Shown here: piece by piece, positions 1-64,000 of the stretch | Numbering within the stretch: the stretch's first letter is position 1 | Layout: each line of letters begins with the position of its first letter | Assembly: GCA_036630325.1 (NCBI GenBank) | Contig: CP142729.1 | Coordinates: 310,001 to 374,000, forward strand | Direction: 5' to 3' | From: Vairimorpha necatrix | Lineage: Eukaryota | DNA: 64,000 nucleotides | Program-made: the position numbers and the translations under genes | Notes under the pieces: generated by a model | What the model saw: only the letters and a program-made list of their open reading frames with translations | Told to the model about the DNA's origin: nothing | Databases searched by the model: none

Positions 1-499
1 AAAAAATTTATGACTGCGATGAATGAAAGAACGTTACAATGAAGACCCTATGTATATATATATGACCGATATTGTGTGCAGGCGCTTTATAAAAATTAAT
101 TAATTTTTAACTTTTATGGGTAACATAAAAAAATATTGCCTTTGTACAAGACAAAATTTAGTTAGAACACCTTGTATGTAATATTCTACGTGCTTTAATA
201 TTTCAAATGCTAGGTAAAATAAATCATGTTTGGTATAATTAAATTGAGCAACTTAAATAATATTAATTTCCCTACAAAGACTTTAGTTTTATGTGAGTAT
301 TACTCACATATCATGTTGTGGGGTTACATGTATTTCTTTTTAATACAAAATATATTGGATTATAAGTAGAAAAGGGGCAGAAGCAAATATCATATGGTCG
401 TTTGGTATGTAAGGTAATTAGCTGTAATTTCAAAATACTTTTACCGAGGTAATAAAAAAAATCAAATAATTAAATTCATTAAAAAGATCTTAAAGTTAG

Positions 500-600
500 A
501 AGGCAAACACGGAGAGGACGAACAAAAAGTGGATTTACTGGCCGAAGAACTCCACTAAATGCAAGAACGACCGAGCTACCCAAAGCCATGGACAATCCTT
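500..600 (+). pseudogene. possible tiny remnant of a non-LTR (RLE-type) retrotransposon C-terminus
   Basis: aaagtggatttactggccgaagaactccac reads KVDLLAEELH, resembling the KYDxxANELG segment of the remnant at 21.9 kb; no ORF. Confidence 0.2.
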
Positions 601-1860
601 AATTAACTATGTCAATGTGTATATTTTATATTTGATTAGGCTTATTTTGGAAAAACAAACATATATATATATATATATTAGAAATTTATAAAAGCCGTTT
701 GGTTTTTTTAATAATTTCTTATCTATTTATTTGAATTTACCATTAGGCTCAACTACTATGTCCTTTTATGTGATTTTAAAAACAAATGTTGTAATCTGAG
801 AAACAGTAATTGTTTGAAATACTTAAGGAATTTTACTCTAAAAATAATCAAGTTGATTATCACATTGAAGTCAATTGTCCTAAAAATATTCTAATAATGC
901 TTTAGTAGTCAAAATTAAAAAAAAATATAAACAATCGCATATGTGTTAAAACTAATGTATATATACGACCGAAATTTACTTATTAACAGGATGTTATTGG
1001 TTTGTGATATAACACACAATTATTAAGTGAATTCCGTGGGTTAATAACTTTATTCGGCCTTGTATCATATAAAAATTTAAAAGCCTTTAGCGTATATCTT
1101 TGATACTGGCGGATATTACTAGAAAGTGTACTCACGTAAGACATAGAAAATGTATCGATAAAGCGATCCAATTTTATAATTGCGCTAAAAATTGCATAAA
1201 TGTATTTGTAATGGTTACAAAATAGCCGCTAAAAATATTTTTTGTAGTAAATATATACCAACGAGATATGTATAGCTAAATAAAAATAGTTAAACTAGAA
1301 TTGCCTTTAACAATAAATTTGTCATATTTTTCCGTCATAATTTATATGTTTAATGAGTTTTTAAATTCTCTTTTTCCAATTGATCGTAAAAAATAAATTA
1401 TATTCGCAAAAAACCTTTTAATCGGTGTGAAAAAAATGTACTAATGAAATTGAAACAATATTTTTAAGCAATAACATAAAATAAATATGTTTTATAAATT
1501 ATTCATCATTAATTTCCAGCTAAGATCTTTGAATACATTTTTTACTAATTATTTTCTTTTATTTAATTAAAATAGTAAATGTAATCATAATTTGCTATTT
1601 TTTAATTAAATAAACTTTTTAATTTGAAATGTACCATATAATTTCAACAGAATACATAATAAAGATTTTTTTGTTTAGTTTTTAAATTTTTTGTCTGAAG
1701 ACAAAATTTGTAAATTAATTTGTCAGACAATTAAGATTCTCTCATATTTGATTTCACGTCATTTACTCTTTACATATACATTAAAAATTTAATTAATATT
1801 TTTTGAAAATATTCTGTGTTAAGAATGTATATAAAAAGAATTCCAATGATTGCCCTTCTA

Positions 1861-2382
1861 ATGTATTTGATGTTTTATTTATGTGTTATACTAACAAATA
1901 GAGATCATGAGTTAATCGAAAGCCTTCGAATTGATTTATCTGGTTTGTTCAGTGTAAAAAAATATATTCAAAAATTAGATGGTATTTTGAGCGAGTACGA
2001 GCCTGAACATCCAAAAATTGAAGATTATGATACTGAAGAATATAATTTCAAAGAAAGCAGCTTTGAAAGTGAATGGACTCGCAGGTGGAATAAAGAGTGT
2101 GAAAAACACGTAGATATAGTGTTCGATATATATTTTCGCAATGTACGTGTAAAAATCCAACGAGAGTTATTTAATGAAATGGAATATGAAGACGTTAACC
2201 AATTTGATCATACGCGTAGCTTAAGGTGTGAACATGAATTAGCTGATAAAATATTCCACGCAATCAAAGGTATTCAAAAGCAAAAGAACGAAGAACTTCA
2301 AAAGTTTAACGCCAAGATAAACTACATCCGGGAAGATATAAAGAGGGATAAACTTGCGCTCGAAAGGAGATATTGTAAATAA
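1861..2382 (+). CDS. hypothetical secreted protein
   Basis: ORF track 1816..2382 starts at GTG. The ATG at 1861 follows a CCC motif (tgcccttcta ATG) and gives a short hydrophobic signal-like N-terminus (MYLMFYLCVILT) followed by a charged helical body. Confidence 0.65.
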   Translation: MYLMFYLCVILTNRDHELIESLRIDLSGLFSVKKYIQKLDGILSEYEPEHPKIEDYDTEEYNFKESSFESEWTRRWNKECEKHVDIVFDIYFRNVRVKIQRELFNEMEYEDVNQFDHTRSLRCEHELADKIFHAIKGIQKQKNEELQKFNAKINYIREDIKRDKLALERRYCK

Positions 2383-3562
2383 AATTGTAGTATTTGTAGT
2401 ATATATATATTTTTATGAAATATATAAATTTTATTGTAAATTTTTTTACAAAATTAGTCACCATCTTATTTATTTGATAAGTTGCTTTCATTTAGTTAAA
2501 TTATGTTAAAATTTTTTATTAACCATTGTACTAAGTATGAAAAATATCAAAAATCTCATAATTATTGAATTTAAATAAAAGATGTTTTTGTTTATAAACA
2601 AAATAATTAATATTCTATTCCTTTTCAATGACACAAATACTCTGTGTTTTATTGATAAACTAAGAGTTTATGTGTATCAAGGAACCATATACACTACAAT
2701 ATAAATATATAACATTTTCACACTGCTCTAATTGTTACTAATTACCGTATATCATTCATTGGTGCTTTTTGGTATTTTGAATATAGAATGTTTTTTATAC
2801 ATTAGAGATACTCTTTTTTATGCATAACCGCTTTATTTTTTTCCAATAATTTTTGCTTTCAAAAAATAATTCCATTATTTGACATTGCAAAAAAATCCGC
2901 GTGTCTAATTTATTGCGTGTTGAAAATTTACAGATACTTCGACTAAGTTGTTCAATCATGCTATAAAAGAGTTTTAAAAATATATCTTAAAACAAGTTAA
3001 ATGTATCAAAATAAAAATCATTCATTAAGTACCACTCCGTTAGTTAAATGTATTTGACCTAGATCTTATAGCTACCTACACCACTTTGCTACCACATAAA
3101 TTGATAATGTTCATGTTTAATTTAGTTTACTCATTCCGCTAATTGAAGTATATGGCGATAAGAATAAAACCTTTTATGTCTTTATATATTTTATTAAGTT
3201 GTTTCGGGCTGCTATTATAGATTGTAGGAAAAATCCATTAAATATAACGTGGCAGTTTTGACCTAAATAATACATGAGATAGTAAAAAATAAGTTCAATT
3301 AGTAACTTATTCTCTTGAAATTAATTCGAAACTGATTTTTTAGGCGTCAAGTGAGTATTTACTTAAACTTTAATTTATTGACGATTATTCTGTACTACAT
3401 TATTACAATAAAAATCATTTTTTATTTGCAATGTCAAGCCTATTTAATGCCGTTTTTGAAGTAAATACCTCTTTAAATAAATTTTTTTTTTAGTAAAATG
3501 ATGTTTTTAATACACACTATTTTACCTTATATTATATAATAAAAATTTTTACATATTTTTTT

Positions 3563-4123
3563 TTATTTTTTATAATTTTCTTCATGGCTACTTTTCTCAT
3601 CGTCAGCTATCAAATACTCTTCAATCCGTTTTTTACTTTCAATTAAAAAAGGTTTTAATCTTTCAGATGCATAAGTAAAAACATGTCCACTTTCACTAGA
3701 TACAATCAATAAAACATCTGACCCCGTCAATGTCGATATCTCATATGCTTTTTTCATTATCCCTTTTTTCCTTTTACTAAATGTAACATTCCGTCTATTT
3801 TTTTCTTCTATATATTTGATTTTCGGGTCTGTTTTTTTAGATAATGAATTGTATTCAAATCCCATTTCCCTTAAATTAAAATTTGGATTTATATTATCAT
3901 ATTCAGGGTTCATATCATAATGCTTAATGTTTTTTGATGAGTATAAATTTCTCCTTTTGTTGTGGTCGTATCCGTTTATGATTTTTGGTTCATAAGGTGG
4001 TTTTGTATATTGTGGATTATTGAAGAATGACATTTCTTCGTTATAGTTTTGTGGGTTTTTATAATTTGGTCTATTTTGATATTCCTCTTCTGAAGATGAG
4101 TCTGTTGTTCTTTTAGTTTTCAT
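3563..4123 (-). CDS. MADS-box transcription factor, SRF/Mcm1 type
   Basis: IKYIEEKNRRNVTFSKRKKGIMKKAYEISTLTGSDVLLIVSSESGHVFTYAS is a canonical SRF-type MADS domain. Confidence 0.95.
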   Translation of the reverse strand: MKTKRTTDSSSEEEYQNRPNYKNPQNYNEEMSFFNNPQYTKPPYEPKIINGYDHNKRRNLYSSKNIKHYDMNPEYDNINPNFNLREMGFEYNSLSKKTDPKIKYIEEKNRRNVTFSKRKKGIMKKAYEISTLTGSDVLLIVSSESGHVFTYASERLKPFLIESKKRIEEYLIADDEKSSHEENYKK

Positions 4124-31732: not shown

Positions 31733-32568
31733 ATTATTTGCAAAAAAATTATTTTATGTTTAAATGTAACAACAAAAAAATTAATATCAACAAATTTCTA
31801 TTGATTAACAATATTTAATATAAAAAATACGATATTCTTCATATGTAACTTTGCTGGTATAACCATAACGAAGAACACATACATGGATTTGAGATGTCAG
31901 CAACAACTTGAAGCATTATTTGATCTATCAATATTGTAAAAAAAACTCGCATGCATATGATGGTTTAAAATATATGCCGGTTATGGTCCGATTTGTTAAC
32001 AAAGAACAATGCTTCGGCCTTTTTTTCATTTACGTTAAAGTCAATTCCGAATTAAAAATAATAAATCTTACTTCAAACAAAATATATATTTATTAAAGAT
32101 ACAAGTATATAACGCTTTAAGAATAATAGAAGCAAAAGGAAGAACAAGTATTGGTAAATTATACAAATTTTGCGCATCAACAAATCAGGAATAATCTCTC
32201 ATTTATCACGTGAAATATCACGGTAACTATTACGATTAAAAGTATAAAAAACGTCAGAGCAAATGTTCGTTTTAAACTTAATTAAATTAAATTTTTAAGG
32301 AACTAAAAGTTCGAATGTACAATTTTCTAGTATTTCTTACCACAGAAAATTTAAAAAGAGCTATTTTCGCAGCTTATATATTTACAATTCAAATTTGGAA
32401 CGGAACGCTTACGCTTTAGGATACATTTAGTTCAAAGATGTGCTATCCCCAAATTAAAATTTGTAGTATGTATAAAGCATAATCGGAAAAGGTGTATTTT
32501 TCTCGTTATTATTAATTTTTTGATAAAAATCTATTTTTTGTATATAGTTTCCACATATCTAAATTAAT

Positions 32569-33798
32569 GGTTAAGTTCTCGACTTACCCCCCCCCCCCAC
32601 CCCTAAAAAAAATAAAAAAAAATAAAAAAAGGGGGAAATTTAAAAAAATTAAAAAAAGGGGAAAAAATAAAAAAAAATAAAAAAAATAAAAAATTTGACC
32701 CATAATGAGAATTAAAGAATTTAGAAAACTCATCTATAAAAAAAAAATGAGTTAATGCAATTTTTAATTGCAAAAAACATTTTGAGGGTCCCTATGTGCA
32801 ATAAATGCAATATACCAATGACTCAAAATCGGACCAACACTGAAAACTATCGTTGTTATTCAAGACGTGATGGTAAAAAATGTTCTAACAAAGGAACCAT
32901 AATGAAACAAAGCGTTTTTAAGAACTCAAAATTGCCTATTGAGGATCTTTTTATATTGCTTTGCGAATGGGTAAAGGGTTCAAGTAATTTGGCCGCCACG
33001 TTAGAACTTGATATAGGTAAATGTACGGTATCAAGATGGTTTACGCGTTTTAATAACGCCGTGTACGTCTCTTATTCAACATATATAAACAATCAAACGA
33101 TTGGCGGCGTCGGTTGTATTGTTGAAATTGATGAAACTTTACTTGTAAAAAGTAAAAACCATGCGGGAAGGGTTCTTCAATATCAAGTATGGGCAGTTGG
33201 AGGCGTTGTGAGAGGGGATGCAAATTCTTTTTTCTTTGAGATCGTAGAAAATAGAACAAGAGCTACTCTTGTTGAATTAATTACAAGAAAAATTGCTCCG
33301 GGGACCACAATTGTGACAGATTGTTGGCGTGGATATAGTGATATTCAAACAATCTGTGTAGAATATGAGTATCTACATTTGACTGTGAATCACAGCCAAA
33401 ATTTTGTTGATAATATAACTGGTGCGCATACTCAGACTATAGAGGGAATGTGGTCGGTTATTAAAAGAGAACTAAGAAAAGGCGGAACTAGTCATGGTAC
33501 TATTATGAATCTTGTAAGAAAGATTTACATTAACAGATTCAAATTAATATATCGTGAAAATCTATTAGATAAAATGTTAGAATTTTTTCAAATAGGTAAT
33601 TTTAGTATTGTAGCTTATGATATTATTCCTGAAATAGACTTTACAATTGTGGAATAATTTTTTTTGTTTTTTTTGGGGGGTAAGGGGGGGTTAAGTCGAG
33701 AATTAAACGTTTTTTTATTTTTTTTTATTTTTTCCCCTTTTTTTATTTTTTTTTATTTTTTTTAGGGGTGGGGGGGGGGGTAAGTCGAGAACTTAACC
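32569..33798 (+). mobile_element. Merlin/IS1595-like DNA transposon, near-intact
   Basis: Long TIRs starting GGTTAAGTTCTCGACTTACCCC; 8-bp TSD aaattaat at 32561-32568 and 33799-33806; internal second TIR-like copy at ~33676-33708. Confidence 0.95.
32755..33657 (+). CDS. Merlin/ISXO2-type DDE transposase
   Basis: N-terminal CxxC zinc ribbon; VEIDET, TDCWRGY, VNHSQNFVD..TGAHTQTIEGMW. The probable true start at 32705 is one base out of frame across an A10 run. Confidence 0.92.
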   Translation: MQFLIAKNILRVPMCNKCNIPMTQNRTNTENYRCYSRRDGKKCSNKGTIMKQSVFKNSKLPIEDLFILLCEWVKGSSNLAATLELDIGKCTVSRWFTRFNNAVYVSYSTYINNQTIGGVGCIVEIDETLLVKSKNHAGRVLQYQVWAVGGVVRGDANSFFFEIVENRTRATLVELITRKIAPGTTIVTDCWRGYSDIQTICVEYEYLHLTVNHSQNFVDNITGAHTQTIEGMWSVIKRELRKGGTSHGTIMNLVRKIYINRFKLIYRENLLDKMLEFFQIGNFSIVAYDIIPEIDFTIVE

Positions 33799-34570
33799 AA
33801 ATTAATATTGATTAAAGAAAAATGATATAAGCTATTGTCAATGCGTTGTATTATTTGTTTATGATTAATTAAGCTAAATGGTGCATTTTCTCAATATATA
33901 ACATGGAGGCATTATCGATCACCTTTTTTCACACCTACTATTTTAACTTTCTTCTAAGAATTACACGGACATGTGGCGTCCTTTGTGGTCTTCTATGGTA
34001 TTCTTTGTAAAAATTTCTTTGCCATTCTTTAAGCTCGTAATTTTGATGATTTTCTTATACTAAGATTTTATGTTCATAACTATTTTAGAACTTCAATGAG
34101 TAGCCAATAATAAGACAAGATATGTTATAAAGTTTAGATAATAAATACTATTGAAGCTTTTGCATTATATACTATCGTTTTAGATGATACTTATGTATAT
34201 AAGGATAAGCTTCGACGATTTTTTGTTCAAAAAATGAAGTTAGTAGCTGATCTTGAATTTTTTAAGCAACAGTTCAAGATATAGAGCAAATTTAGAAAGA
34301 GATTTAATTTAGGTCATTTTTATAGTATTGGAGTCTATATGATAGTATCACTGAAGTATCATTGGTGTTTTTTTTGCTATATATTCGAATATTATTACAT
34401 TAATTTGTACTTTCAATTAAATTATAATCGTTCTATGGATTTATTGCTTGTTTTAATTTAACTAATGCATTTTGCATGTAACTGCGAAAGATGTTTTAAT
34501 TTTTATATTATTTTATTATAATTGCTATCTGAATTATCAAAAAAGCATTTAATTAATTTTTTAGATTTTA

Positions 34571-34608
34571 TGTTAACCATTTATTTATTAAGGGTTCTAA
34601 ACCCTACA
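34571..34608 (-). repeat. 3' mini-LTR (38 bp)
   Basis: Minus strand TGTAGGGTTTAGAACCCT-TAATAAATAAAT-GGTTAACA; contains the integrase stop codon and AATAAA; preceded by polypurine tract GGAGGGGGGA (34618-34609). Confidence 0.8.
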
Positions 34609-35412
34609 TCCCCCCTCCAGACGGGTAGTCTCTCCATCTTCTAAACAACTCTTCCTTATCTCTTTCAAATCATAATGCCTCTTTTTAACAATTTTACCAT
34701 CCAGTAGTCTCACAATATATGAATCATTTTCACTTATAGCTACGATCCTTCCGCGACCCGTGAATCTTCCCTTGTCTGTTTTCGCACGTGTACCTAAATT
34801 TTCTCTCCTAGCGATTCTTACCTCTTGGCCTACTGTAAATGTCTCTCTGTGTCTTCTCTTGAACCGACCAGCATATTTTCCATTTTCATCATTTTCAATT
34901 ATAACTTCAGCAGTTTGATCTCTCCACGCTTCCATCGGCGTACATTTTATTGCTGTATGTAGTGTATTATTATATCCTTTGATTGCTCTTTCTATCTTTT
35001 CAGAAATATTCCCATCATTTTGCTTTATCAATGTCTCTCTTATAGTTCTGATGCATCTCTCGATTCTACCATTACTCCTATGAGCTTCTAAGCCCACTTT
35101 CCTATGTTTAATATCATTAATACTACACCATTCTTTAAATCTATTACTTACAAACTCTTTTCCGTTGTCTGTCACATATTCCTCTGGAAATCCATCTTCC
35201 CTTATCCACTTTTGTAATACCTCTATAACTTCACTACTCTCTTTACATCTCAAATTCGAACCCCACAACCTTCTAGTAAAGTAATCAATACCCAGTAACA
35301 CATACCTATTCTCTCCACCTATGTCCATTAAATCCAACGCCACTTTCTCCAATTTCTTTCTAGTTACTACGAAATCACATCCTCCTGTGTTTTTCCTATT
35401 GTAATCCCACAT
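34597..35412 (-). CDS. gypsy integrase (rve), frameshifted from the RT ORF
   Basis: VALDLMD, IDYFTR, TDNGKEF, SNGRIERCIRT, YNNT.HTAI..TP. The HHCC zinc finger ends the upstream ORF, implying a 1-bp indel near 35405. Confidence 0.88.
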   Translation of the reverse strand: MWDYNRKNTGGCDFVVTRKKLEKVALDLMDIGGENRYVLLGIDYFTRRLWGSNLRCKESSEVIEVLQKWIREDGFPEEYVTDNGKEFVSNRFKEWCSINDIKHRKVGLEAHRSNGRIERCIRTIRETLIKQNDGNISEKIERAIKGYNNTLHTAIKCTPMEAWRDQTAEVIIENDENGKYAGRFKRRHRETFTVGQEVRIARRENLGTRAKTDKGRFTGRGRIVAISENDSYIVRLLDGKIVKKRHYDLKEIRKSCLEDGETTRLEGGCRV

Positions 35413-37142
35413 ATTTCACAATTCTTAATTACCTTATTAATATGATCTTTCGTACCAGGCCAATACCATCTTTGTTTAATGTTATAATAAGTGCCTTTGA
35501 CCCCTCTATGGTTTAACTCCTCATGTACTCTTGTTATTTCATGTTCTCTACTATCTAGGCTCAATATCTCTTTCACCTCACCTGTGGGAAATTCCCAATA
35601 CTGTTTACCGTCCTTTTCTTTAATATGTTTCTGCTTTTTTCCCAAAATTTGTTTTTCGATCACTTCTTTTCTCTTGTTGTCCTTTTCTTTTTGTTCATCC
35701 GAAACTTCTACCTGATCATACTGCCTACTTAACGCATCCGCATCTGTCATCAACTCCCCTTTCACATACTCTATTGTAAAGTCAAACTCTTGTATCTGTT
35801 CTACCCATCTGTTTATTCTGTTATTATTGAAGTATGGCTTATTTCTGATCTCTGCTAATGCTTTATGATCCGTCATCAAATGAAATTTCCTTCCTCTCAA
35901 ATCACTTTCAAACTTCTTTATTCCAAAAAACACCGCCAACATCTCCTTCTCACTTATCGTATATCTTCGCTCGGTAGGAGTCAACATTTTCGATGCCCAT
36001 TGTATCGGAATCCACTCACCCTCTTTATTTTCTTGTAATAGAATTGCTCCGATTCCCGTATCACACGCATCAGTTCTTACTCTAAATAGCTTTTTTCCGT
36101 CCGGAATCTTCAACTTTTTCATATCTCTCAAGCCTTGCTTCATATCCTCAAAAGCTCTTTCCATATCCTCCGTCCAATTCCACTTAACATCTTTCTTTAA
36201 AGCCTCAGTAAGCCTTACTGTTCTATACGCATAGTTGGGAATAAAGTCTCTAAACCAACCAGTTAGTCCTAAAAATCTTCTTAACTCTCTAACATTCTCA
36301 GGTTTTCTATATTCCAATGTCTCCTGCTTTTTAATCTCATTCGGTCCCATGACCTCCCCATTAATTGTTACTCCCAGCAACATCACCTCATCTTTTTTGT
36401 ATTGTATCTTTGTTTGGTTTATTCTCAACCCACACTCTTTAAACTTTTTAATTACCCTCTCTAGTAACTCGTCATGCACTCTTACGTCTTTACCATGAAT
36501 AACTATATCATCCATATATACTTCCACGCCTTTACCTCTGAATTCATCTAAAACTCTGTTCATTACTCTCTGCATTATATGAGGCGAATTCTTAAACCCC
36601 ATAACCATACTATTCCATTCGTATACTCGACCATTCACTTCAAATGCTGTTTTGTGCTTATGGTGCTCCTCAATCTCAATATGATAAAACCCTTCTTTTA
36701 AATCGATAACCGTAAATACTTTTGACCCCTGTGTGGCTCTCATAATATCCTTAATTAACGGTAGTGAGTACGGGTCCTTGTCAACCAAATCGTTTAACGC
36801 CATCAAATTGCTTACCAATCTTACGTCCCCATTTGGTTTTTCAAGTGCTCTTATTGGACTCCTCCACTCACTTTTGGAACGTCTTATAACCCCTCTATTT
36901 TCCAACTTATTCAAGTACTCCTCAAATTTCACCCTAAGGTAGTATGGCACATTCTGCCCTCTTTTCACAACCTTTTCACCTTGCTTAGTATTTATTGGAC
37001 ACTTCTCTCCTGTGAGATATTTTATCTTTTCTTCTGATTCTTTAAAAACTTCCGGATACTTTTCAATTAAATTTTCTAACTTATTTACTGTTTTACATCT
37101 TTTCCCTTCATTGTTGATAATTGGTTCTTTCTGTAAAACTTG
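35367..37142 (-). CDS. gypsy reverse transcriptase-RNase H (plus integrase zinc finger)
   Basis: DLKEGFYH, MGFKNSP, YMDDI, FLGLTGWFR, TDAC, EKEMLAV, TDHKAL, DALSR. The frame is open from 37142, directly after the gag stop. Confidence 0.92.
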   Translation of the reverse strand, partial: QVLQKEPIINNEGKRCKTVNKLENLIEKYPEVFKESEEKIKYLTGEKCPINTKQGEKVVKRGQNVPYYLRVKFEEYLNKLENRGVIRRSKSEWRSPIRALEKPNGDVRLVSNLMALNDLVDKDPYSLPLIKDIMRATQGSKVFTVIDLKEGFYHIEIEEHHKHKTAFEVNGRVYEWNSMVMGFKNSPHIMQRVMNRVLDEFRGKGVEVYMDDIVIHGKDVRVHDELLERVIKKFKECGLRINQTKIQYKKDEVMLLGVTINGEVMGPNEIKKQETLEYRKPENVRELRRFLGLTGWFRDFIPNYAYRTVRLTEALKKDVKWNWTEDMERAFEDMKQGLRDMKKLKIPDGKKLFRVRTDACDTGIGAILLQENKEGEWIPIQWASKMLTPTERRYTISEKEMLAVFFGIKKFESDLRGRKFHLMTDHKALAEIRNKPYFNNNRINRWVEQIQEFDFTIEYVKGELMTDADALSRQYDQVEVSDEQKEKDNKRKEVIEKQILGKKQKHIKEKDGKQYWEFPTGEVKEILSLDSREHEITRVHEELNHRGVKGTYYNIKQRWYWPGTKDHINKVIKNCEICGITIGKTQEDVIS

Positions 37143-37598
37143 TTACTTTTTAATTTTATATTTTTCCCTACCAGCTACACTTTCATGACATTCTCTAGCG
37201 TAATGCCCTTCTTTCTTACATATAAAACATTTTGTAGTTTCTCTGATTTCTCTTCTTTTCCTATACATCCTAAGATTTTCTTTTCTTTCTTCCCTAAACT
37301 CTTTCAACACTTTATCCATAATCTCTTTAATCATTTCTTGTCTTTCTTCTGACTCTCTCTCAAATTCTGCTCCTTTTTGTAAGCCTTTATAAATTTCCTC
37401 CCAACTGCTCCTTCCGTCACAAAAATTTTCAAAAATATAATCCTGCAAGTTCGCAGATGCCAAATCCATAACATCTTTCCACTCAACTTTCAATATTAAC
37501 TTTAGTCTCTTATCTATCCTAATTGCCTCTTTCTCTAATGTTCTAGCCTCTTGACTACGGGACTCTCTTGTTTCCCTGTTCATCCTTGTGTTCGCCAT
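37143..37598 (-). CDS. minimal gag-like protein with CCHC zinc knuckle
   Basis: CFICKKEGHYAREC = CX2CX4HX4C; 151 aa; the A of the ATG is the last base of the 5' repeat. Confidence 0.8.
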   Translation of the reverse strand: MANTRMNRETRESRSQEARTLEKEAIRIDKRLKLILKVEWKDVMDLASANLQDYIFENFCDGRSSWEEIYKGLQKGAEFERESEERQEMIKEIMDKVLKEFREERKENLRMYRKRREIRETTKCFICKKEGHYARECHESVAGREKYKIKK

Positions 37599-37634
37599 GT
37601 TAACCCTTTTTTTTTGAGGGTTCTAAACCCTACA
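37598..37634 (-). repeat. 5' mini-LTR (37 bp)
   Basis: Minus strand TGTAGGGTTTAGAACCCT-CAAAAAAAAAG-GGTTAACA, followed immediately by TGGCGAACAC (PBS-like). Confidence 0.8.
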
Positions 37635-38737
37635 TTAAATATTAGAAAAAATAATTTTCATGTATAAATATGGATCTCACGTACTTAAAATCTTCCTTTA
37701 ATGAATATTTTAGAATAATTTTTTTGTTGAACTTCTGCTATATTATTTAAGTGACAAAGTAAGTTAAAATTACAGTACAGCATTTATATATCTACCCTAT
37801 GTTTTTATATGATAAATACTTTGTAATCTTCTCCTTTTTATAACATTTTTGCAATGCAAAAATTTGAATCTTGATGTCAAATATTAGAAAATTTAATCTT
37901 ACTTGGTCTTTTAAAAACTTACAGTTTTGATAAATAAATTATCTACATAAAAATTTTAGTTTTTATCGAATATTGATAACACATGACAAATAACAAATAC
38001 AAATATAAATTACTGTTGATGTTTACAGAGCACATCTTGCTAGTTAAGATGGGATCACATAATTATTAATGGAATGAATCATACAATGAAACTTTTTTTG
38101 TTTGAGTTTTTTGGTGTCACATTATTTGATTATCATACTAACAAACTTGAACAAAATATTTATAGAATATAAAAAATCATTAAGCCACTTTAAAGCTATT
38201 TTTGAAAATTTATATTAGATGACAGACAATGCACGTTAGATTACACACATATCTATTTAAAAAGAAAACTATCATAGTTCGCTATGTTTTAAGTTCTAAA
38301 CAAGAATTCAATATCGTTATATATTTATTTTAAAATACTCAATGGAACTGGACATGATTTTAATAACAACCAATAGTTTTTATTTTTAAAGAAGATTTCT
38401 CCTACTATACTCTTTTTTTAGAATAAATATGAGCAGATAACTTAGCTACTTTTTCTAGGCATATAAAACATAGAAAAGCCGATTGCACAGTTATTGTAGT
38501 TATAATTTGATTTTTTATTTAGAAAATTAGCAATAATATATTGTCGTATCCTAAAGACCACTTAAGCAACCATCATCTCGTTTCAGAATCCCTCACAATG
38601 TGTACACAAAAATCTAAATAATATTTTGAACAATGTTTCCAGTTAAATATTTTAAGAAAACGTTTATACAAATAAATGCATCTTCATTCAGACTCATCTA
38701 CTGTTTTCAATATTAATATTTTAAAAAAAAAATACCC

Positions 38738-63482: not shown

Positions 63483-63570
63483 AAGTTTCATTGAATCAAC
63501 TTAATGATTATCGTAAACATTTTCATCATCTGAGTTGTTCCAACTGCATCATAGAAAGTAGAAACAATTT

Positions 63571-63643
63571 TGGTGCCCCTGGGAATCGAACTCAGCCATT
63601 GCTCAATGGAAGCATTGCATTCTACCACTGTGCTAAGGGCACC
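63571..63643 (-). tRNA. tRNA-like sequence with non-canonical anticodon arm (pseudo-tRNA, possibly Gly-TCC derived)
   Basis: GGTGCCC/GGGCACC acceptor stem; A box TAGCACAGTGG; B box GAGTTCGATTCC. It has an extra base before the D stem, a T-stem mismatch and an irregular anticodon arm (ATGCT-TCCATTG-AGCAA). Confidence 0.7.
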
Positions 63644-64000
63644 ATATTAGATTTAAACACTACACGAAATTAATTCCAATTAAAAAAAACCTAAGAAAAC
63701 CTAAAAAGAAATAGAAATAACATCAACAAATTTACGTTAGCCGAGTTGGCAAAGTTATAGAGATATGATCTATTGTCAACTAAATTTTTCTACTTGTATA
63801 ATTTGAATACCAATAGCAATTAAGTAATGACAAAATGATTTTTTACTCCAATAAACATGATTAAGTTTTAAATTTCTATCTTGACGAATATATGAAGAAT
63901 TCATCGAGAAAATTATTTGTATTACAGATAGATACAGACCTTGAAAGATTACGGGATGCTACATATGAAGTGTGGCGTAAATTTGTAGATTCAAGATGGC

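Follow-up and report, generated by a model that had tools for sequence, protein, structure and literature searches.

A compact Ty3/gypsy-type retrotransposon of Vairimorpha necatrix with terminal repeats of 37 and 38 nucleotides, probably a defective copy from a protease-less microsporidian family

Can repeats of fewer than 40 nucleotides be the true long terminal repeats (LTRs) of a retrotransposon, and does it mean anything when the two differ in their cores? LTRs usually measure at least 100 bp. In a 64,000-nt stretch of the genome of the microsporidian Vairimorpha necatrix (the window, to which all coordinates refer), one Ty3/gypsy-type unit of 3064 bp lies on the minus strand at 34571-37634 and is bracketed by repeats of 37 and 38 nt. 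An earlier reading, made from the letters of the window only (the sequence-only reading), took these repeats for LTRs with fixed, functionally specialised 5' and 3' cores. We hold it to be very probable, with its three parts taken together, that the unit is a recently inserted yet already defective copy of a compact LTR retrotransposon from a protease-less microsporidian family, that the LTRs of this family are truly 37-50 nt long, and that the difference between the two cores belongs to this copy or to a subfamily and reflects no division of labour.

Terminal anatomy and boundaries of the element

Both repeats start with TGT and end with ACA, and thus form direct terminal repeats of the TG...CA type. 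The 5' LTR (37598..37634, minus strand; 37 nt) reads TGTAGGGTTTAGAACCCTCAAAAAAAAAGGGTTAACA and contains the variant core CAAAAAAAAAG, and the 3' LTR (34571..34608, minus strand; 38 nt) reads TGTAGGGTTTAGAACCCTTAATAAATAAATGGTTAACA with the core TAATAAATAAAT. The 5' LTR is abutted by a sequence resembling a primer-binding site (PBS), TGGCGAACAC, which begins with TGG (37588..37597, minus strand) and doubles as the codons for gag residues 1-4 (MANT). The 3' LTR is abutted by the polypurine tract GGAGGGGGGA (34609..34618, minus strand), which also supplies the ..EGG at the C-terminus of the translation. The start codon of gag straddles the junction of LTR and PBS, its A being the final A of the 5' LTR, and the stop codon of the integrase frame, a TAG at 34599-34597, lies within the 3' LTR; from ATG to stop, the coding stretch takes up 3002 of the 3064 nt. 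The LTR geometry, the A donated by the 5' copy and the stop inside the 3' repeat had all been described in the sequence-only reading and are confirmed here.

The 18-mer that opens both repeats occurs exactly twice in the 64 kb with three mismatches allowed (expected, 0.02; none of 100 shuffles gave two occurrences). In about 1 kb on each side, no direct repeat longer than these was found to bracket the element, and a blastn-type self-comparison found no second copy of the element in the window. The 22 nt that adjoin the 5' end (37637-37658) recur 242 nt further outward (37879-37900) at 86% identity, in AT-rich DNA where such a likeness may be due to chance. The sole tRNA gene of the window, a tRNA-Met at 63570-63644, ends in ...GGGGCACCA and does not match the PBS-like sequence. 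A complement of the PBS within the LTR, as in Tf1-like self-priming, was not seen on inspection by eye.

The coding content is that of a Ty3/gypsy element. The gag open reading frame (ORF; 37143..37598, minus strand) encodes 151 aa and ends at an in-frame TAA (37143-37145); its CCHC zinc knuckle (37188-37232, residues 123-137) matches zf-CCHC with an E-value of 2.2e-4 and 21.6 bits, against a cut-off of 20.8. The first part of pol (35367..37142, minus strand) is in frame with gag and comprises 591 codons, giving a translation of 591 aa. On the same strand it carries the reverse transcriptase (RT; 36363-36842, Pfam RVT_1, 2.4e-31), the RNase H (35784-36176, Pfam RT_RNaseH, 1.4e-30, of the RT_RNaseH/RT_RNaseH_2 type) and the integrase zinc finger (35409-35549, Pfam Integrase_H2C2, 3.4e-12). 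The second part of pol (34597..35412, minus strand) lies in another frame and contains the integrase catalytic core (35101-35328, Pfam rve, 6.9e-11) and a C-terminal tail. The order RT, RNase H, integrase found by Pfam is the one expected of Ty3/gypsy (Metaviridae-type) elements.

Four other sequencing runs (X1-X4), represented by contig records in which rare variants are dropped, cover the element at no less than 99% identity, and in X1-X3 the sequence just outside both ends is uncovered. Bins from 34581 to 37628 have depths of 54-157 in X1; the bin across the 3' end has 27.5, and the four bins that are entirely outside the element have 0-4. Loose contig ends diverge at 34609 into AT-rich unique sequence (three in X2, one in X3), and four in X1 diverge at 34570 into ...GTGTTCGCC, the PBS that precedes a different gag in other copies. 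Depth in X4 is low from 34327 to 34580. The far left flank at 34200-34355 is covered in X2 by a 545-nt contig with a depth of 1158.8, and probably belongs to a different repeat of high copy number. An empty site, in the form of a run contig that passes from one flank to the other, was not seen, and the window holds no other copy of the flanks. The end of homology at the termini in these runs, together with the architecture of the relatives described below, bears out the earlier description of a minimised, almost fully coding Ty3/gypsy-type retroelement with genuine LTRs of about 38 nt.

The same contigs show where this copy is damaged. Its lesions are one stop codon, one frameshift of a single base near 35401, one deletion of 9 nt and the deviant core of the 5' LTR. 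At the gag TAA (37145), every covering contig in all four runs reads another letter, which restores a sense codon. The frameshift corresponds to one additional base behind 35401 in contigs of X1, X2 and X3, and the deletion to nine additional bases behind 37481, in gag, in contigs of X1, X2 and X4. The gag stop, the frameshift and at least one letter of the 5' core, the G at 37606, are private to the window copy.

Relatives, short repeats and the missing protease

A search with the 591-aa RT part returned 148 proteins at E <= 1e-3 among 7999 scored candidates. The closest named matches are microsporidian and come from Nosema granulosis (81-85% identity, partial proteins), Vairimorpha necatrix, V. 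apis, Enteropsectra breve and Pseudoloma neurophilia. Several relatives preserve their ends. The contig L001, from a metagenome, holds a decayed relative with about 50% protein identity and LTRs of 39 nt that are identical at 38 of 39 positions (TGTTGTATGTGAATAAATAACCCTTAATATTATATGACA, with G for A once in the other copy). Its 5' LTR is followed by the PBS TGGCACCCAGTC with an ATG across the junction, GGCGGGGA stands directly before its 3' LTR, and the TTATA found at either flank makes up a perfect 5-bp target duplication. L033 is a contig of 3024 nt that was placed in a 'Clostridium' metagenome-assembled genome (MAG); it shows 73% identity, has an open frame of 911 codons and ends with GGAGGAGGGGA, then a 38-nt 3' LTR (TGTTGGGTTATTAGCCCCTATTAAATAAATGACTAACA), then unrelated sequence. 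The 5' LTR of L037 measures about 49 nt, and TGGTGGAGAC comes after it; the PBS-like sequences of the relatives also include TGGTGGAGAAC.

Three more distant relatives are longer (3.36-3.96 kb in total). In L041 the LTRs are identical at 58 of 58 positions, the start codon sits at the junction, the 3' LTR contains the stop codon, and the flanks on the contig do not match each other. In L050 the LTRs are identical at 75 of 75 positions, and those of L047 measure about 170-176 nt. The ATG of L041 and L047 is again formed by the last LTR base and the TGG of the PBS, and their ORFs extend to the 3' LTR or into it. All LTRs measured have a CCC triplet that starts 18-23 nt before the LTR end, and an A(A/T)TAAA hexamer ends 9-25 nt before that end in all of them except the 5' copy of the window; both motifs lie within the identical or nearly identical LTR pairs of the relatives. 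A purine-rich tract abuts the 3' LTR in L033 and L001 as well, and more weakly in L041. The combination of an LTR of at most 50 nt, the hexamer, the CCC and an ATG made from the LTR end and TGG is found in L033, L001, L037 and the window element, the window's 5' copy lacking the hexamer.

The proteins agree with this picture. Contigs of 3035-3159 nt carry seventeen full-length homologues of 987-1031 aa, with 25-100 nt left over beyond the ORF. Homologue N-termini such as MAN, MAS, MGA, MAP, MAT and MVE, often behind a short in-frame extension, fit an ATGG in which the start codon overlaps a PBS beginning with TGG, and many C-termini (..GGC, ..GGDVV or ..GML) fit a translated purine tract running into TGT. 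The gag N-terminus MANTR is common to the window element and the proteins P0004, P0009 and P0018. The window element thus falls among compact elements of about 3.0-3.16 kb with, in intact relatives, one ORF of about 1000 codons; we call this grouping the 'Aalg retro L'-like compact microsporidian clade, after an Anncaliia algerae consensus discussed below, and it is a grouping made here, not a named family. Judged from the sequences compared, the mini-LTRs are a family-wide trait and not an accident of the window copy.

Conservation across lineages at the DNA level extends over the 20-30 nt before the 3' LTR, with GAGACTACCCGTCTGGAGG in the window (34609-34640) and in L033 (about 2700-2723), and GAGACTCCGTCTTAAGG in L001 (about 3640-3663). 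This stretch encodes the recurring tail ..ETTRLEGG, and its conservation suggests an extended plus-strand priming signal that overlaps the coding sequence.

Microsporidian-type retroelement contigs were also found filed in bacterial MAGs of Clostridium sp. and Turicibacter sp. (L033 and L034, the latter in G001; L035 in G002), with 40 rows of pol-like matches in G001 and 13 in G002, several rows falling on one contig. A search for gag in the MAGs behind L033 and L035 gave weak knuckle matches only. The placement of these contigs looks like mis-binning. In viral contigs, a protein-pattern scan gave 111 pattern matches and no relative, and the exact 15-mer of the LTR/PBS junction hit 65 loci, none of which encodes a relative, so that these hits were set aside as chance matches.

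The element departs from the Metaviridae type in its protease. No retropepsin family was matched in the ORFs of the window at E <= 0.01 (Pfam). Even at E <= 1, none of eight full-length clade members gave a retropepsin-type Pfam match, against all four of the more distant relatives (P0066, P0071, P0076 and P0089). Among the longer elements, L050 gives a clear aspartic-protease match, L047 a weaker one and L041 a weak one. Zinc knuckle and RT anchor (W.NP) were both found in 22 of 28 clade proteins, the other 6 lacking one of the landmarks; 101-150 aa separate the two in these 22 and 107 aa in the window element, and D[ST]G occurs between them in 1 of the 22. The anchor lies about 93 residues into pol, which leaves about 50 aa before the conserved N-terminal block of the RT.

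A maximum-likelihood tree was built from 42 rows, namely the window element, matches of at least 940 aa, P0001, P0035 and the ORFs of L041, L047 and L050, with shorter matches excluded; it was inferred quickly and carries no bootstraps. All 29 rows that lack a protease match group as one clade with a support of 100 in the Shimodaira-Hasegawa-like approximate likelihood-ratio test (SH-aLRT). Its sister is P0066 with L041, followed by P0076 with L047 and L050; several branches are long and the deeper order is unsure. Inside the clade, the window element groups with P0001 (SH-aLRT 100) and then with P0004 (100). As far as sequence comparison can tell, the compact clade of about 3.06 kb (proteins P0001-P0044) is without a detectable aspartic protease, and its nearest outgroups keep one.

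The two repeat cores and what they may mean

The cores of the window copy had been said to differ completely, which overstates the case. In a global alignment, the two repeats are identical in 34 of 38 columns, with three mismatches and one gap, all in the 12-nt core (35 of 39 in a local blastn alignment), and both cores are A-rich variants of one sequence. The 3' core holds two overlapping AATAAA hexamers and the 5' core of the window holds no A(A/T)TAAA, and the poly(A) signal proposed for the 3' repeat is thus present; its supposed restriction to the 3' copy is not supported by run X2. The one X2 contig that reads past 37613 has the 12-nt 5' core TAATAAAAAAAT, which carries T19 and T22, retains an AATAAA and differs from the 3' core at a single base. 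The same single contig also lacks the window's C at 37616, its missing base and its lost T22. At 37606, where the window has G as the last base of its 5' core, every covering contig of X1, X2 and X3 has a different letter.

Two further motifs had been given a role. The CCC of the 5' copy was likened to the start motif of host genes, a CCC upstream of the ATG described for Nosema ceranae and Encephalitozoon cuniculi (Cornman et al., 2009; PMC2685015). The triplet is in both LTR copies, starting 22-23 nt before the ATG position or LTR end, as against 3-9 nt before the ATG in 7 of the 13 non-element ORFs of at least 200 aa in the window, and a host-type start motif specific to the 5' copy was therefore rejected. 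The pattern in the host genes is in itself consistent with the microsporidian placement of the window. The second motif, the inverted repeat AGGGTT-nnn-AACCCT, is indeed present in the window LTRs; its folding is ordinary (z-scores of -0.24 and -0.82 against shuffles), L033 has a weaker 5-bp stem only (z -0.09), and the motif is missing from the LTR sequences of L001 and L041. A functional hairpin was rejected, the folding energies lying within the range of the shuffles.

Several observations weigh against the view of an ordinary copy whose core difference is its own. No target-site duplication of 4-6 bp is matched at the element (TTTAA before, TAAAA after), as the sequence-only reading had already stated. 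The CCC of the LTRs across the family, at 18-23 nt, does not stand where the host genes have theirs. A single flank contig of X1 (depth 4.1, about 95% identical) would point to roughly 15 copies, as one data point. The 12-nt 5' core has four differences, compared with nine substitutions and two indels (1 nt and 9 nt) over all 3064 nt against the two long majority contigs of X1. LTR position 26 is A in the 5' context (window, X1, X2) and T in the 3' context (window, X1 and the 3' LTR of L033, the 3' core being uncovered in X2), and this difference recurs between the window and the majority contigs of X1, although a canonical cycle should equalise the LTRs. Lastly, the transcript ends, tRNA partner and R region in the cycle proposed below are deduced and presumptive, which also counts against that view.

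Such a cluster of core differences is not random decay, in a copy that elsewhere departs from the majority by about 0.3%. Taken with the unmatched target site, it suggests an exchange between subfamilies, a local assembly error in an A/T-rich run or some unseen process. The first two are the best of the competing accounts and form a special case of the preferred reading: the odd 5' end, with its deviant core and unmatched duplication, would have come from recombination or gene conversion with another subfamily, or from misassembly. This is a possibility to be taken seriously, although we do not favour it. The four differences within 12 nt and the mismatched halves of the target site fit such an event, as do the four X1 contigs in which the same LTR and PBS are joined to a different gag, and the unitig breaks at 34590/34591 and 37613/37614, which suggest that several core variants coexist in the runs. 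The window, on the other side, offers neither a second copy nor an empty site, and no contig with its exact 5' core was seen in the runs, whose contigs drop rare variants.

Far less likely is the account closest to the sequence-only reading, in which the repeats are fixed, specialised versions, promoter-type at the 5' end and poly(A)-type at the 3' end, kept apart by a non-canonical strand transfer or by copying of read-through RNA. The missing hexamer in the 5' core beside two in the 3' core speaks for it, and so do the A and T at position 26 in the window and the X1 majority, with A also in the 5' context of X2. In the comparison with L033, the 3' core is moreover the best-conserved part of the LTR (12 of 13 at positions 19-31, the core and the next base, against 29 of 38 overall, by hand count). 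The X2 majority 5' core, with its AATAAA and its single difference from the 3' core, argues against specialisation, as does the G at 37606 that no covering contig of X1, X2 or X3 shares. The LTR pairs of L001, L041 and L050 are near-identical or identical, hexamer and CCC included, which leaves a non-canonical strand transfer without support, and the conserved PBS and purine tract argue for ordinary priming. The sequence-only reading had itself named a core difference private to this decayed copy as the finding that would count against it; by the run contigs this is largely what was found, with the single-base difference at position 26 remaining.

Retroviruses canonically build the two LTRs of each new copy from one minus-strand template, which should make them identical, and because of this a majority difference between 5' and 3' across many copies would be unexpected. 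The majority signal at position 26, read here from contigs, may or may not stand for many independent insertions. It is improbable, in our estimate, that the A26/T26 asymmetry is regenerated or inherited at every transposition, with the LTRs not both rebuilt from one template; the routes would then be a first strand transfer onto an A-run or poly(A) tail, or the copying of a read-through RNA with both LTRs, and they share that low standing. Finally, that the true LTRs are long and conventional and were truncated in this copy to about 38 nt each, which has in its favour only the general expectation about LTR length, can be dismissed: the flanks share no further similarity, run coverage and loose ends stop at these termini, PBS and purine tract abut the repeats exactly, relatives and the A. 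algerae consensus have LTRs of 38-58 nt, and full-length ORFs lie on contigs with 25-100 nt to spare.

Under the preferred reading, that of a canonical element with truly short LTRs, each LTR of the family would pack the TGT...ACA ends recognised by the integrase, a poly(A) hexamer, the CCC triplet and the first base of the gag start codon. Transcription would start within the 5' LTR or shortly before it, perhaps downstream of the CCC that the family conserves, and the hexamer of the 3' LTR would direct polyadenylation with cleavage at or just past the LTR end. The R region would then be at most 10-20 nt long and U5 almost nil; in retroviruses, R regions of about 12-20 nt suffice. One polyprotein of Gag, RT, RNase H and integrase would be translated from the ATG at the LTR/PBS junction, and Gag-Pol may stay unprocessed or be cut by a host enzyme. 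The minus strand would be primed by a tRNA on TGGCGAACAC and the plus strand on GGAGGGGGGA, and integration would leave a target duplication of 5 bp. The anatomy behind this scheme is conserved across lineages, with exact repeat boundaries and the 5-bp duplication in L001, and many diverged lineages keep an intact ORF of about 1000 codons.

The retroelement is adjoined by a Merlin-type DNA transposon at 32568-33799. Its ORF of 300 aa (32755-33657, plus strand) carries a DDE_Tnp_IS1595 domain (E 1.3e-13), and its inverted repeats of about 90 nt (32568-32657 and 33710-33799) are 84% complementary and contain C/G runs within A/T runs.

Known systems and significance

The type member of the Metaviridae, Ty3 of Saccharomyces cerevisiae, is about 5.4 kb long, with LTRs of about 340 bp, separate overlapping GAG3 and POL3 frames and a protease. 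The window element shares with it the order RT, RNase H, integrase, the CCHC gag, the TG...CA LTRs, a putative tRNA-type PBS next to the 5' LTR, the purine tract next to the 3' LTR and, as seen in L001, a 5-bp target duplication; it differs in its length of 3.06 kb, its 38-nt LTRs, the one continuous frame of its intact relatives and the lack of a protease. Closer to hand, the Nbr elements of Nosema bombycis, for which Xu et al. 2006 is reportedly the source description, are Ty3/gypsy-type LTR retrotransposons of a Nosema-group microsporidian and are reported to encode a single polyprotein. According to Gill et al. (2008; PMC2474625), a protease is part of nearly every Nbr element, alongside Gag, RT, RNase H and integrase, whereas no protease is detectable in the clade of the window element. 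L041, L047 and L050 likewise differ from the window element as longer elements that keep protease matches and fall outside the clade without them.

The nearest described counterpart is in Anncaliia algerae. Supplementary Table S1 of Parisot et al. (2014, Genome Biol Evol; PMC4202319) lists the consensus 'Aalg retro L' with an LTR of 50 bp, an ORF at 32-3049 (about 1006 codons) and a total of 3127 bp; the LTR of 'retro S' is 45 bp long, and the other complete LTR elements of this species have LTRs of 73-272 bp. By eye, the LTR of retro L starts with TGTTAT, holds AAATAAATACCC and ends with GTTAACA followed by TGGCG, which gives an ATG across the LTR/PBS junction as in the window. It differs in coming from another host genus, in an LTR that is 12 nt longer and in a tabulated ORF that ends before the 3' LTR, compared with the stop inside the LTR in the window. 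A term search of the main text of that paper found no comment on the short LTR or the protease of retro L. Our literature search found no paper on microsporidian LTRs below 50 nt or on the missing protease, Xu et al. 2006 and Repbase, which may bear on the point, lying outside it; the papers on short LTRs that it found concern other organisms and none a microsporidian, one abstract giving 194 bp for a tomato element. The window element is thus a new member of a microsporidian Ty3/gypsy clade whose architecture can already be read from the public retro L consensus and from annotated pol proteins.

The default minimum LTR length of common LTR finders is about 100 bp, a setting under which elements of this kind would be missed in microsporidian genomes or called 'LTR-less'. 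Their contigs may also end up mis-binned in bacterial MAGs, as L033 and L035 appear to have been. Autonomous LTR retrotransposons of about 3 kb, with LTRs of 37-50 nt, a coding density of 98% and no protease, would mark the lower size limit of the class. They raise the question of how short a U3-R-U5 unit can become and still support transcription, polyadenylation and strand transfer, and of how a Gag-Pol polyprotein works without a protease of its own.

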